From the NCBI RefSeq assembly GCF_001564455.1, contig NZ_CP011391.1, positions 570,001 to 602,000 on the forward strand: a stretch of DNA of 32,000 nucleotides. Direction: 5' to 3'. The notes under the pieces were generated by a model. The model did no database searches. It worked only from the letters and a program-made list of their open reading frames with translations, and was not told the DNA's origin. This stretch comes from Faecalibaculum rodentium. GTDB lineage: Bacteria > Bacillota_I > Bacilli_A > Erysipelotrichales > Erysipelotrichaceae. The first letter of the stretch is position 1. Every line of letters starts with the position of its first letter. Below, piece after piece: positions 10,103 through 14,503 of the stretch. Made by a program: the position numbers and the translations under genes.

Positions 10103-10260
10103 AGTGTTCTCCTTACCGCTTTGTGCGGTCCTCACTTTTTACGAGACCGCAGACAGATGAGCCGTCAATGACGCGGTTAGCGTGCATTTAATCATTGACG
10201 GCTCAGCAGCTGTCTGCGGTTTATAAGATCCATGAAAGTCATAAATACCATAAAAAGCGG
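10103..10260 (-). promoter_or_regulatory. Hairpin-leader module copy 1 (hairpin 10146-10220; TTGACG 10195-10200; CATAAA-type array 10221-10258)
   Basis: Arm accgcagacagatgagccgtcaatga pairs with arm tcattgacggctcagcagctgtctgcggt. The sense leader is TAAAAAGTGAGGACCGCACAAAGCGGTAAGGAGaacactATG. Confidence 0.75.
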
Positions 10261-10301
10261 ACTCAAAAATGGGACATTATATCATGCCCCATTTCTATGA
10301 A

Positions 10302-10580
10302 TTAACAATTAATTTTTGCCGCACGGAATATATAGTACAGTACCCACGGCGCAAATATATATTCAATATCCTCAATGTTTCTGAAGGTTTGGACATCAAA
10401 TTTTCCCTTTTCGGGATTCCATATCCGAAGATTATCATCATTGCAGAGAGCGGGAACAACTGTCATTAGAAATACTATCATCTGCCGGTCGGATAATTGT
10501 TCTGGGTCTAATTCATTTGAAGCACAGATAGCTTCGTAGTCTTTCTGATGAGTGGCAGTAATAAATTGTAGCTGATCCAT
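10302..10580 (-). CDS. Small acidic hypothetical protein (92 aa)
   Basis: ORF lies 31 nt downstream of the preceding gene with its own RBS. It has 14 D/E versus 8 K/R. No family recognised. Confidence 0.5.
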   Translation of the reverse strand: MDQLQFITATHQKDYEAICASNELDPEQLSDRQMIVFLMTVVPALCNDDNLRIWNPEKGKFDVQTFRNIEDIEYIFAPWVLYYIFRAAKINC

Positions 10581-10610
10581 TTTGCATTCTCCTACAGTAA
10601 TGATAGTTAA

Positions 10611-10955
10611 TTAGATAGCCGGCGTCACTATGGCTTCCAATATCGGTATCCAAAATGGGTACTCACTGACTGATCCAGCGATTTCAATAGCTTGAGTATC
10701 ATGCTCATTATCCAAATACGAAGAAACTTTCAGATACTGGTCTAGGTTTATCTCATGTCCAAGGATTTCTTCTACAGACATCCAGTTATCGGCATCATAG
10801 CCGTTTGGAATAAAATTCGCGTCCCGTTCTAGGATAAATAGTTTTGTCAGCCAGGGGGTATCGGGATCATAGTTCTCCCAATCTAGAATTCCTACAGCTT
10901 TCAGGATAGCAATCATCTCGTCCCGAGAGAAAACAAGTACATTGGTTTGATTCAT
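10611..10955 (-). CDS. Small strongly acidic hypothetical protein (114 aa, about 20 D/E vs 5 K/R)
   Basis: ATG 10955 follows the RBS ataaggagag of module copy 2. Composition was counted by hand. Confidence 0.55.
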   Translation of the reverse strand: MNQTNVLVFSRDEMIAILKAVGILDWENYDPDTPWLTKLFILERDANFIPNGYDADNWMSVEEILGHEINLDQYLKVSSYLDNEHDTQAIEIAGSVSEYPFWIPILEAIVTPAI

Positions 10956-11128
10956 CAGTAACTCTCCTTATCGTCCTTACGCGGACTTCACTTTTTCCAC
11001 GGCTGCAGCCCTCAATCCAGTCAACGGCGCGAAGCGTTCAGTTTACCGTTGACCGATCTGAGGTGGGCGGCGATAGAAGACCCTAAGATTCATAAAAACC
11101 ATAGGCTTCATATCAGCCATAAAAAGGC
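10956..11128 (-). promoter_or_regulatory. Hairpin-leader module copy 2 (hairpin about 11001-11072; TTGACC 11049-11054; apical GCGAAGC)
   Basis: It shares a 33-nt identical apical core (11020-11052) with copy 5. The sense leader is GAAAAAGTGAAGTCCGCGTAAGGACGATAAGGAGagttactgATG. Confidence 0.7.
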
Positions 11129-11132
11129 TATA

Positions 11133-11160
11133 ACAAACAAAAGCGGGGTGACCCGCTTTT
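11133..11160 (-). terminator. Rho-independent terminator after the 198-aa ORF
   Basis: aagcggg-gtga-cccgctt stem. Minus-strand tail is ttttgtttgt. Confidence 0.7.
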
Positions 11161-11167
11161 GTAATGG

Positions 11168-12273: not shown

Positions 12274-12296
12274 TTGAGTACCTCCTGCCGCTTTAC

Positions 12297-12605
12297 TTAG
12301 CTCACTATATCCATCCGCTCTACGACAAATGCGTATTGAGGACGTTCAGAAGATCCGTCTTTGCTCATTCTGGCAGCTATACGTCCAGTAGCGTTAATGC
12401 ATGTTCCAGGAACGACCATAGATGCTGTATCCGCCAAGCCACGCCATGTTTCCAGAAATAAGAGGTCGCTCTCGTAAATCCCTTGGGCATTTGCGTAGGG
12501 ACGCTTTACAGCTACCTTAACCACACATTGCTTAATTCCGTTAGGTTGGACGATGCATTCAGGCTTCGATGCCACAGTCCCCGATATACAAAATACGTTT
12601 AACAT
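12297..12605 (-). CDS. Tail-less SSB-like OB-fold protein, paralog A (102 aa)
   Basis: It has the same length and pattern as paralog B, and its N-terminal 11 aa are nearly identical to B. Confidence 0.55.
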   Translation of the reverse strand: MLNVFCISGTVASKPECIVQPNGIKQCVVKVAVKRPYANAQGIYESDLLFLETWRGLADTASMVVPGTCINATGRIAARMSKDGSSERPQYAFVVERMDIVS

Positions 12606-12760
12606 TTGATTTCCTCCTGCCGCTTTGTGCGGTCTTCACTTTCTTTCAGACCGCAGGCAGATGCTCCGTCAATGGCGCCATTGGCGTGCACTTTACCATT
12701 GACGGCAAAGCAGTTGCCTGCGGTTGATAGAAATCATGAGAAACATAAAATTCATAAAAT
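12606..12760 (-). promoter_or_regulatory. Hairpin-leader module copy 4 (hairpin 12650-12724; TTGACG 12699-12704)
   Basis: Arm accgcaggcagatgctccgtcaatgg pairs with arm ccattgacggcaaagcagttgcctgcggt. The sense leader is AAGAAAGTGAAGACCGCACAAAGCGGCAGGAGGaaatcaaATG. Confidence 0.75.
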
Positions 12761-12770
12761 CGTGCGTAAT

Positions 12771-12796
12771 TAAAAAGGATGGCATCTCTGCCACCC
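12771..12796 (-). terminator. Rho-independent terminator after the PD-(D/E)XK-like gene
   Basis: ggatggca-tctc-tgccaccc stem. Minus-strand tail is ttttta. Confidence 0.55.
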
Positions 12797-12802
12797 TAAG
12801 GA

Positions 12803-13753
12803 TCACCTGTTTTTCTTTTTCGAATAATCTTCGAATACTTCCGGATGATTCTTCTTGACCCACTCTAGCTGAGACTTGTATTCGTCGCGCTCAGTCATCA
12901 TCTCATCGTATTCGCGCTTCATTTTTGGATCGAGCCACACAACCTGCGCATCATTATATTCATCAAGTCTAGATCTAGTTTGTGCTGTCATTTTTACACC
13001 TTCTCTTTCCAAATAATCAATCTGTCTTTCTGGGTCAACTGAGTCTCGGAAGATATGGCCAAGACATTGGATTGCTTCCTCGGATGATTCTGACCAGTTC
13101 ACGCCAACGGCAGCAATCTTTATTCGGACAAAATCATTCAGAGATTGGCAGAGTTTTTCTCCCGCTCCTCTTTCATTATCATTATAAAGCATTTGTGCCA
13201 CCGTCTTGCAGTCAATGACGAAACTATGGTCCATATGTGGCATGATCCAAATTGCGCAAACTGGCTTAATGTCTTTGTACTCATCATCCTTGAAGCCACT
13301 GACATCGTTTTTCTGCGATTTGAACATTTCCCCAATGTAGTAAAAGATTCTTCCCGCTAACGACCGGGAACCTGGATTTGAGTTCTGCACTTCCACATCT
13401 ACGAAAAGAACATCTGGATCCGCTGTTTCGCATACATAGAGAAGTAAGGCATCAAAACTCATATCACCCTTTTCAATCTCGGTCATCTGATCCCGCAGTT
13501 TATGACAGTGACCTCTGCTGGTACCATTCAAAGACTTTCTGAATTTGGCGGCAATATCTTCCAGGTCTCCTGAAAATATCTCAGGCATCGTTTTTTTCAG
13601 AATTAAGGCACACAGAATCGGGAGAGAAAGAATCTCTTTTGCTGCCTTATCATATCTGGCTCTAGCTTCTTTTGGAGAAATAACAGCTTTTGCTTCAGAA
13701 CTCTTCATTTCAGAATCCCAACAGTTCATTTTTTTTACTTTCCAGTTCGGCAA
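12803..13753 (-). CDS. PD-(D/E)XK-type nuclease-like protein (Rpn / PDDEXK_2 transposase-like architecture)
   Basis: SFDALLLYVC...VLFVDVEVQNSNP...AGRIFYYIGEMFKSQ...YKDIKPVCAIWIM parallels the D...(I/V)E(M/V)Q...R..YY...Y..l.PV..I layout of that family. The start is ambiguous (13753 or 13729). It overlaps the upstream ORF. Confidence 0.5.
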   Translation of the reverse strand: MPNWKVKKMNCWDSEMKSSEAKAVISPKEARARYDKAAKEILSLPILCALILKKTMPEIFSGDLEDIAAKFRKSLNGTSRGHCHKLRDQMTEIEKGDMSFDALLLYVCETADPDVLFVDVEVQNSNPGSRSLAGRIFYYIGEMFKSQKNDVSGFKDDEYKDIKPVCAIWIMPHMDHSFVIDCKTVAQMLYNDNERGAGEKLCQSLNDFVRIKIAAVGVNWSESSEEAIQCLGHIFRDSVDPERQIDYLEREGVKMTAQTRSRLDEYNDAQVVWLDPKMKREYDEMMTERDEYKSQLEWVKKNHPEVFEDYSKKKNR

Positions 13754-14357
13754 GTTTATCTTCCGCTCTTGCGTCTATTTGTTTTAGTCTCTCCTGCAGT
13801 CTGACGAGCATCTTATAATATTCCATTTTGTAACATTCCATTTCGCCTAGGAGCATATTGACTACTTCCTGCTGACCTACGTAAATGCATTTAAGTAAAA
13901 GTTCATTTTTTTTGCTTTCCAGTTCGGCAAGTTTATCTTCCACTCTTGCGTCTATTTGTTTTAGTCTCTCCTGCAGTCTGGCGGGCATCTTACAATATTC
14001 CGTTTTGTAACATTCCATTTCGCCTAGAAGTATATTGACTACTTCCTGCTGACCTACGTAAAAGCATTCAAGCAAATGGATTTCATCTAATCTGGCCATA
14101 TCCGAATCTCTTTTTTCCTGGGTCTCAGAATCATCTTCATAGTTATCGTCTTCATCTTTTAAAGTCGTTTGTCGCTCAAAACAGCGGACGGCATCGTACA
14201 GAGTTGTAAAATATATCCCCCCCATATGCCATATTCTTTTTTCGGGATTATAGTCTTTAGCCACAACATACCTTTCAGGAGCACCTTCAGGACGTTGCAA
14301 TAATGCAATCTTGTAGCCCAGTTTTCCTTCGCGGATTTCAATAATCTCAAATGTCAT
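13710..14357 (-). CDS. Hypothetical protein with small N-terminal domain and duplicated 59-aa coiled-coil/Cys-containing repeat
   Basis: Start set at ATG 14357 (aaggaggaattgattATG, MTFEIIEIREGKLGY...). The C-terminal half is two near-identical 59-aa units. Confidence 0.55.
   Translation of the reverse strand: MTFEIIEIREGKLGYKIALLQRPEGAPERYVVAKDYNPEKRIWHMGGIYFTTLYDAVRCFERQTTLKDEDDNYEDDSETQEKRDSDMARLDEIHLLECFYVGQQEVVNILLGEMECYKTEYCKMPARLQERLKQIDARVEDKLAELESKKNELLLKCIYVGQQEVVNMLLGEMECYKMEYYKMLVRLQERLKQIDARAEDKLAELESKKNELLGF
13723..14076 (-). repeat. Perfect-phase tandem repeat, 2 x 177 bp, inside the 13710-14357 CDS
   Basis: gttcatttttttt(a/g)ctttccagttcggcaagtttatcttcc... recurs at 13723 and 13900. 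The protein units are (L/K)C(F/I)YVGQQEVVN(I/M)LLGEMECYK.EY.KM..RLQERLKQIDAR.EDKLAELESKKNELL. Confidence 0.85.
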
Positions 14358-14503
14358 AATCAATTCCTCCTTACCGTTATTTGTGCGGTCCTCACTTTCT
14401 CCAAGACCTAGCACCCCAGCTGTGTCAACGGCGCGAAGCGTTCAGTTTACCGTTGATACAGTTGGATGCTAGGTAGCATAAAAAACATAAGAACCCTATG
14501 AGG
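14358..14503 (-). promoter_or_regulatory. Hairpin-leader module copy 5 (hairpin 14407-14473; TTGATA 14453-14458; apical GCGAAGC; CATAAA 14477-14482)
   Basis: The 33-nt apical core 14424-14456 is identical to copy 2. The sense leader is GAGAAAGTGAGGACCGCACAAATAACGGTAAGGAGGaattgattATG. Confidence 0.7.

Follow-up and report, generated by a model that had tools for sequence, protein, structure and literature searches.

Five intergenic modules of an integrated conjugative element in the chromosome of Faecalibaculum rodentium are each built around an imperfect hairpin of ~75 nucleotides (nt) that is selected as a structure. They lie in a 32,000-nt stretch of contig NZ_CP011391.1 (assembly GCF_001564455.1, positions 570,001 to 602,000), referred to here as the window, and coordinates are positions in the window unless another locus is named. 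The modules are found between a region that resembles a transfer origin (oriT) and the gene of a primase, one at the head of each of five units of cassette genes, all transcribed from the minus strand. We tentatively propose that each module is a strand-specific start signal operating in single-stranded DNA (ssDNA), most likely a split sigma-A promoter on the plus strand. When this reading is taken together with the one in which the hairpins are single-strand origins, a function in ssDNA is probable.

An earlier note, made from the sequence alone, placed the five modules at positions that were all confirmed, in each case with the minus strand as the sense strand. Module 1 (10103-10260) precedes the DUF2786/DUF7168 gene; its hairpin occupies 10146-10220 and its YATRAR repeats 10221-10258, while TTGACG on the gene-proximal arm (10163-10168, minus) is followed by AAAGTGAGG at 10130-10138, a small hairpin at 10115-10129, a Shine-Dalgarno sequence (SD) and the ATG at 10102. 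Module 2 (10956-11128), before genes encoding proteins of 114 and 92 amino acids (aa), has a hairpin at about 11000-11072, of which the lower stem is degraded, and AAAGTGAAG at 10986-10994. The hairpin of module 3 (11762-11922; before a 197-aa gene) is located at 11807-11881, extendable to 11801-11884, with AAAGTGAGG at 11791-11799. Module 4 (12606-12760) precedes two genes whose products resemble SSB, the protein that binds single-stranded DNA, and contains a hairpin at 12650-12724 and AAAGTGAAG at 12634-12642. In module 5 (14358-14503), which stands before genes of 215 and 308 aa, the hairpin (14406-14474) is bulge-free, its plus-strand apex contains GCGAAGC and AAAGTGAGG is at 14390-14398.

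Read in the sense direction, the modules display a common anatomy consisting of an upstream terminator, three to five yTTATG repeats, the ~75-nt hairpin, 6-7 nt, the motif AAARTGRRG, a small stem-loop, the SD and the start codon. The upper stem is GTCAAYG/CRTTGAC, and the asymmetric apex combines an A/T-rich segment of 9 nt with a G+C mini-hairpin. The five modules align with 69% column identity. Two patterns, TCAAYGRTWAANTGMACGC at the apex and TTGAC-N25-AAARTGARG, were each found five times in the window, once per module, against 0.00 expected from 100 shuffles. The arms had been described as 17 nt (proximal) and 20 nt (distal) with a 3-nt bulge, which is correct for copies 1, 3 and 4; copies 2 and 5 lack the bulge, as does every module of the related elements. 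TTGAC, said to occur in both arms, does so in four copies, but copy 5 has TTGATA on its distal arm. The '-10-like hexamers' pointed out beside the distal arm are real sequences, but each is the first unit, nearest the stem, of a YATRAR array of three to five copies (yTTATG in the sense direction), which has a period of 9-10 nt in the window and 7 nt in relatives; on the sense strand every hairpin has these direct repeats at a distance of 2-6 nt on its upstream side. Each unit had also been said to end in its own terminator, and a terminator scan finds such sites at four unit boundaries (9414-9428, 11137-11162, 11945-11966 and 12776-12797); four of the five modules have a terminator before them. 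The claim that a module heads every transcription unit holds for the cassette units, but the primase operon has none and the mob operon uses a normal extended -10 promoter.

Other F. rodentium strains have six modules and an additional cassette encoding a 202-aa protein. Module 2 of the window is a chimera, with its proximal arm derived from one module of these strains and its distal arm from the next, the 202-aa cassette between them having been lost.

Related elements were reached through relaxase and primase homologues. The same module type stands before the cassettes of L267 (47% relaxase identity), of L269 (49% relaxase identity for L269/L270) and of the Dubosiella-like element L272 (55% primase identity). 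The modules of L271 (33% relaxase identity) are analogous but different. The overall layout is common to L267, L269/L270, L271 and L272, and cassette content varies between lineages. The stems of L267, L269 and L272 diverge in sequence, those of L272 reaching up to 29 near-perfect base pairs.

The plus strand folds strongly as ssDNA in modules 1, 3, 4 and 5, with energies between -27 and -39 kcal/mol over ~146-149 nt and z values from -6.0 to -8.1. Owing to its chimeric make-up, module 2 folds weakly (-18.4 kcal/mol, z = -1.0). Covariation was assessed in 11 distinct aligned modules, after removal of the three bulge nucleotides from three of them; MAFFT could not register bulged with unbulged arms, and a descriptor search was used together with the bulge-trimmed alignment. 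Paired cells amounted to 87.7%, compared with 69.3% in shuffles and 30-45% when partners were slid. Both sides have changed in 19 of the 28 stem pairs, and the covariation score was 0.519 versus 0.185, a value reached by none of 500 shuffles. Arm complementarity was 0.73 for cognate and 0.49 for non-cognate arms, and the compensatory changes span at least four stem classes. These data show that the module hairpin is selected as a structure. A protein-operator palindrome was rejected, as the stems covary while their sequence is not kept; covariation and cognate-arm complementarity exclude it.

The folding data lean towards the plus strand. DNA folding prefers this strand in all five window modules, by 0.9-3.0 kcal/mol, and there are 12 wobble-compatible mismatches for the antisense and five for the sense strand, although the wobble-pair strand counts (33 to 23; 12 to 5) amount to a weak lean only. 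GCGAAGC, which is unusually stable as a DNA mini-hairpin, is a plus-strand sequence of modules 2 and 5 as well as of a related hairpin family, termed type B and described below.

The spacing between hairpin and leader is constant. From the sense TTGACN to AAARTGRRG there are exactly 24 nt in 13 of 13 module variants, which come from four element lineages. Seventeen of these nt reach the stem base, and the next six are never -10-like, the sense hexamers at -12 to -7 being CTCGTA, CGTAAA, CGAGAA, CGCAAA, TGTAGA, CTGAAA, CTTGGA, CGTGGA, CTGTAA and CGTGAA. Counting the 17-nt spacer puts -1/+1 at a conserved T|G, and the start so predicted sits 4 nt before the small stem-loop that leads to the SD (8 nt in module 3 of L267 and in L269). 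The proximal-arm TTGAC, part of a -35 close to consensus, is invariant though its last base is unpaired in five of 11 sequences. A consensus promoter scan detected no sense-strand promoter in any module, and no duplex sigma-A promoter was found in either direction in any of them. A normal promoter is recognisable where present, as in the conserved TGCTATCAT of the mob operon, an extended -10 promoter (9015-9007, minus) retained across lineages. Two duplex candidates were rejected, a normal sense-strand promoter for want of a -10, and a plus-strand promoter for a small RNA on account of the spacing between -35 and YATAAR, which is 18-23 nt and falls within 16-18 nt in module 5 only.

The mechanism that we propose requires the plus strand, the template of the cassette genes, to be single-stranded. 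In this state it would fold into the ~75-nt hairpin, and the upper stem would rebuild a duplex -35 element (TTGACN). The 17 spacer positions, mostly base-paired, would end at the stem base, about -13/-12, so that the template strand would already be unpaired from there, and the 3' flank would supply A/T-rich YATAAR elements as a substitute for the -10. Host RNA polymerase, the presumed enzyme, would initiate at the conserved G of GT|GAGG, a purine start, and the mRNA would open with the small 5' stem-loop, followed by the SD and the gene. In view of the non-consensus duplex -10 and the terminator before four of the five modules, the cassettes may be silent in duplex DNA. Expression would then be confined to the single-stranded phase, either after entry into the recipient or during rolling-circle replication, and the same RNA could prime complementary-strand synthesis too. 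A function in expressing the genes is favoured by the presence of one module per cassette, by the fixed leader distance and by the absence of another promoter.

Several observations weigh against a promoter on the plus strand. The gene-proximal (sense) arm has the better -35 in every lineage, with TTGACA in eight of the 12 tabulated modules, while the distal arm, the would-be non-template strand of the hairpin, shows greater degeneracy (TTGATG, TTGAAA, TTGATA) and has TTGACA in one module only. The first YATAAR unit lies 18-23 nt (mostly 21) from the distal -35 and lacks the conserved T at -7, and a hairpin-less yTTATG/YATRAR array is located at 9340-9380 (minus), after the terminator of the last cassette and ahead of the oriT and mob regions. 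In one module, two alleles are distinguished by C/T substitutions, which are wobble-neutral on the sense strand only. The modules of the most distant relative, L271 (5301-7622), consist of GTATTT repeats, TATTTGTAGCA, a hairpin of 10 bp that lacks TTGAC, GAAAAGTGTGA and an SD, retaining only the AARTGWGA block and the overall layout in common with the others. Finally, Firmicute precedents and similarities of the sense strand favour origins over promoters. These bear on the first of the alternatives, which is itself doubtful, that the hairpins are single-strand origins (sso), single-strand initiation sites (ssi) or priming sites on a transferred, displaced sense (minus) strand, their link to gene starts being secondary. 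RNA polymerase or the RepB'-like primase would prime at the hairpin, and the complementary strand would start just upstream of oriT, in a rolling-circle-like manner.

Either strand may be the one transferred. The candidate oriT was compared by footprinting across three lineages (window 9074-9179; L267 8185-8545; L271 8067-8527), which have in common the invariant GCAAGCAAGGG (sense), lineage-specific repeats, CGGGG-N-CCCCG followed by CCCC(T/A)TTTA, and the mob promoter. In the window the inverted repeat CGGGGTAACACCCCG (9086-9100) is followed by minus-strand AGCCCC/TTTACG (9085-9074), and three lineage-specific GTGGATACA repeats (9117-9165) are directly followed by the invariant CCCTTGCTTGC (9169-9179, plus), a nick-motif candidate. 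The cassette genes are directed toward oriT, on the far side of which is the relaxase. There is one nick-like motif per strand, CCCTTGCTTGC on the plus and GAGCCCC/TTTACG on the minus strand, the latter after the conserved inverted repeat. The minus-strand motif resembles the MOBQ nick core, GTGCGCC/CTTACG, and, if it is used, the sense strand would be the transferred one. For the establishment genes of pLS20 it is the non-template strand that is transferred, and the single-strand-origin motif of ICEBs1 is on the coding strand. Similarly, the plasmid pMV158 reportedly transfers its relaxase gene's coding strand. A literature search on the invariant 11-mer returned nothing relevant, and a comparison of oriT with the type B elements revealed nothing common beyond chance k-mers. 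An inverted copy of the leader core (GTGAAGTCCG) is present on the plus strand at 9262-9275, in the intergenic region on the oriT side, flanked by short inverted repeats.

The sole Rfam similarity of the modules also points to the sense strand. Module 2 matches RF01691 on this strand with 21.1 bits (GTCAACGGTAA...GTTGAC), below the gathering threshold of 31 bits, and the other modules have no match at E <= 5. The RF01691 motif is known from Bacillus and Lactobacillus plasmids, upstream of rep and mob genes and usually in the same orientation, and from B. subtilis 'upstream of ydcS', a site that corresponds to NC_000964.2 535441-535494. As ICEBs1 sso1 maps upstream of ydcS (PMC4595007), the two coincide, and the RF01691 'Bacillus-plasmid RNA' is very probably the DNA origin ssoT and not an RNA. 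A location just upstream of oriT would fit rolling-circle plasmids, which usually have an sso just upstream of the double-strand origin (PMC4595007), and the better TTGACA lies on the sense arm. The adjacent primase adds to the case for a priming site, since RepB' initiates on hairpin DNA (PDB 3H25 title). However, six copies, one per cassette, exceed priming needs, and neither the fixed 24-nt distance to a motif linked to the stem-loop and SD nor the lack of another cassette promoter is explained by origins. DNA folding and wobble counts prefer the other strand, the Rfam score is below threshold and the nhmmer alignment covers about 12 nt only. Furthermore, the GAA or GAAA mini-loops of ssoT are on its functional strand, whereas the GCGAAGC of the modules is on the plus strand.

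It is unlikely that the module acts as duplex DNA or as RNA. Under this second alternative transcription would start upstream, through a factor bound to the yTTATG repeats, through a sigma-like or antiterminator protein encoded by the element or through terminator read-through, and the hairpin would be a 5' untranslated RNA serving processing, stability or translation, with zygotic induction controlled by a repressor as in p576. The yTTATG repeats before every hairpin and before the mob region recall the heptamer operators of Reg576 (PMC6294495), and TATnnn sequences (TATGAT, TATAAA, TATATT) occur in the sense direction at the hairpin base. The module RNA also folds strongly (z = -4 to -6), the C/T alleles of one module are G-U compatible, and AARTGWGA, the small hairpin and the SD are retained in L271 despite its different large hairpin. 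The L267 orthologue of the neighbouring ~260-275-aa gene has weak matches to Sigma70_r4 and antiterminator Q (E = 0.005-0.014). Conversely, there is no -35 at the proper distance from the sense TATnnn, and the promoter scan was without a sense promoter. The invariance of TTGAC in one arm, unpaired in five of 11 sequences, and the stem base 17 nt further on are left unexplained, A.C mismatches on the sense strand exceed G.U pairs by 12 to five, and near-perfect stems of 29 bp would be costly in a 5' untranslated region. That the hairpins are recombination sites that assemble or shuffle cassettes, like the ssDNA-folded attC sites of integrons, is very improbable: the array is cassette-like and variable in content between lineages, the window lost one cassette through exchange inside two modules, and type B hairpins, with their abruptly beginning conserved block, sit exactly at resistance-cluster gene junctions, but attC sites carry their core sites (RYYYAAC/GTTRRRY) at the outer stem ends and have an integron integrase nearby, the stem-end sequences of the modules do not fit these core sites (attC identity was rejected), Pfam and PHROG scans of the genes at 2574-16026 revealed no integrase or recombinase family adjoining the array, the observed exchange fits ordinary homologous recombination within a ~34-nt identical core, and the fixed promoter-like geometry would be unexplained.

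Pattern scans of genomes and metagenomes returned, among the matches listed, mostly chance hits, the useful ones being the type B family and, for the element itself, one contig. A leader-pattern scan of viral contigs found nothing and a second pattern scan of these contigs gave 10 single matches, while blastn of the annotated plasmid collection with the window array and the L267 array gave no match. Rfam has no family at gathering threshold over the modules or the type B hairpin. The latter has the same apex and is widespread in mobilisable elements of gut Clostridia (L034 1525-1615 and at least ~30 other genome loci among the matches listed), where, again among the matches listed, it is always upstream of sigma-like or helix-turn-helix genes followed by MobC and relaxase in one direction. 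Its antisense strand reads TTGACT-N17(..TGC)-TATTTA with the stem ending at -12; a second stem-loop follows 2 nt after the predicted +1. Folding prefers the antisense strand in 14 of 14 copies, by 2-16 kcal/mol. The type B relaxase cluster has 3359 members, Ligilactobacillus and Campylobacter coli included, and type B variants are located exactly at gene junctions of aminoglycoside-resistance clusters in Campylobacter plasmids and Pediococcus pEOC01 (L251 4001-4107; L252 5001-5121). Type B is an independent family with the same core and promoter-like geometry as the modules.

The 489-aa product of the gene that heads the array of cassettes (14557-16026, minus) and has no module in front is predicted to be an archaeo-eukaryotic primase (AEP)-type primase-polymerase with a RepB'/PrimPol-like fold and a C-terminal helix-turn-helix. 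The best structural matches of its AlphaFold model (mean predicted local distance difference test score 84), identified with Foldseek, are the AEP domain of a cyanophage PrimPol (E = 1.4e-7) and RSF1010 RepB' (3H20; E = 5.4e-7). Weak PHROG and Pfam RepB_primase matches agree with the fold, and the earlier designation of the gene as a primase is thus borne out by the modelled similarity to RepB'.

The cassette genes, all on the minus strand, are located at 13710-14357, 12803-13729, 11168-11761, 10611-10955 and 10302-10580, together with the two SSB-like genes (12297-12605 and 11965-12273) and the DUF2786/DUF7168 gene (9440-10102). The SSB-like genes and the DUF2786 gene point toward oriT. Homologues of the DUF2786/DUF7168 gene (L253, L255, L257) reside in islands with Gad2, DarA_C, an N6-methylase-SNF2 helicase fusion, SSB, YopX and reverse transcriptase, of which Gad2 is annotated as an anti-Gabija protein. 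This neighbourhood fits an establishment or anti-defence role for the family. The homologue loci are rich in anti-defence-type genes and contain none of these hairpins, indicating that the module is not tied to this gene family. In the first cassette unit a tandem duplication of 177 bp (13719-14076, 2.0 copies, 92% matches) lies within both genes, and the gene calls of this unit vary among F. rodentium strains.

The element runs leftwards from ~16.9 kb, where it adjoins recU-ponA in the F. rodentium chromosome, and is found at the identical site in eight other assemblies, in one of which type IV secretion genes are visible. RecU, the relaxase, the 489-aa protein and an SSB-like protein are identical to named F. 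rodentium proteins. In the window every gene of the element is encoded by the minus strand. In the direction of transcription these genes and regions comprise a ~275-aa gene, the 489-aa gene, the five cassette units, the oriT-like intergenic region, the mob genes and ParB/ParA/SSB. The mob operon includes a NikA/MobC-like accessory gene (8476-8934, minus) and a gene for a MobA/VirD2-type relaxase of 524 aa (6897-8471, minus). The ~275-aa gene 5' of the primase gene (about 16300-16900, minus) is broken by a 113-nt deletion relative to other strains (compare L259 3820-4647); this deletion and the cassette loss at module 2 suggest that the element is decaying in this strain. The right half of the window is chromosomal, as indicated by Rfam matches to class B RNase P RNA (20743-21094, plus; 279.6 bits), a thiamine pyrophosphate riboswitch (23684-23784, minus; 68.4 bits) and a group II intron (27068-28947, plus), whose domain matches (27068-27239 and 28873-28947) enclose a 437-aa open reading frame.

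If the proposed promoter reading is correct, the terminator-insulated cassette array would be an immediate-early programme that silences itself once the complementary strand is made. More speculatively, the conjugative elements of Bacillota may rely on a compact sigma-A promoter of split type, present solely when ssDNA has folded, its hairpin providing the -35 and a 17-bp spacer that ends at a ready-made fork, and promoter and priming signals may form one ancient family of ssDNA start sites. The modules, the ssoT origins and the type B hairpin have the core GTCAAYG/mini-hairpin/CRTTGAC in common. In the literature found, ssDNA-driven early expression is documented for IncF and IncI enterobacterial plasmids only, and a compact module of fixed geometry in an element of gut Erysipelotrichaceae would offer a route to study zygotic induction in Bacillota. 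TTGACN-24-AAARTGRRG with the hairpin provides a search signature for leading-region cassettes, possibly with anti-defence genes, and reannotation of RF01691 as a DNA single-strand origin rather than an RNA is indicated. The type B hairpin, in turn, ties gut mobilisable elements to resistance-gene clusters that reached Campylobacter plasmids.

Among known systems, the single-strand origin ssoT (pBAA1, pTA1060, ICEBs1 sso1) resembles the modules in its stem core GTCAAYG...CRTTGAC with TTGAC on the 3' arm, in the large asymmetric loop, which contains a GAA- or GAAA-looped G+C mini-hairpin, and in its position upstream of mob genes in Bacillota mobile elements; both would have a strand-specific function in ssDNA. 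The loop consensus differs (GG-TAmCGG...GGAGGAT-AAGGA in ssoT), and the modules are present in five to six copies tied to gene starts at a fixed leader and SD distance, compared with one or two ssoT per replicon. In a parallel to RSF1010, with its RepB' primase and the sites ssiA and ssiB, the element encodes a primase of RepB'-like fold beside its hairpins, but TTGAC and the 17-nt spacer of the modules suggest RNA polymerase rather than primase, and there are six copies as opposed to one per strand.

The establishment-gene systems of Bacillota conjugative elements, EGeRS1 of pLS20 and EGeRS2-Reg576 of p576, also place a repeated regulatory module before each establishment operon. EGeRS1 is structured, like the modules, and EGeRS2 has short direct-repeat operators. 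However, EGeRS1 is about 600 bp, lacks a recognisable promoter and is situated on the non-template strand, the one transferred, whereas the modules are about 150 bp with a single hairpin. EGeRS2 combines strong duplex sigma-A promoters with repeated operators; the modules have the repeats and no such promoter.

For the proposed promoter, a close parallel is with the Frpo and ssi elements (F Frpo1-2, ColIb-P9 ssi1-3, pESBL classes 1-3). As in these, an intergenic hairpin precedes each operon next to oriT, the genes, SSB genes included, point toward oriT, arm pairing rebuilds a -35 and there is no duplex promoter. In pESBL six hairpin ssDNA promoters, one per leading-region operon, were confirmed by 5' rapid amplification of cDNA ends (PMC12672017). 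The view that the modules are Frpo-like single-strand promoters stands in part, as regards the selected hairpins, the absence of a duplex promoter, the -35 with its 17-nt spacer to the stem base and the pESBL-like layout, but the distal -10 is poor and the plus strand is one of two candidates for the transferred strand. Frpo and ssi rebuild both -35 and -10 in the stem; in the modules the -35 is rebuilt and the -10 is outside the stem, which ends at about -13/-12 and offers in its flank only a degenerate YATAAR repeat. The Frpo region is ~330 nt, far longer than the ~75-nt modules, and the latter reside in an integrated element of a Bacillota host. A homology search in the literature detected no homologue of Frpo in a Gram-positive island, and for pLS20 an ssDNA promoter was judged highly unlikely. 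No sequence similarity to Frpo or ssi was detected, in that the window region was unmatched in the plasmid collection and no direct comparison was made. Hairpins that act as start sites in ssDNA, such as Frpo/ssi and sso, are already known as a kind of element; new here, besides the lack of detected similarity to Frpo/ssi, are the much shorter length, the stem ending in a fork at -12 and the regular cassette array in an integrated Bacillota element.

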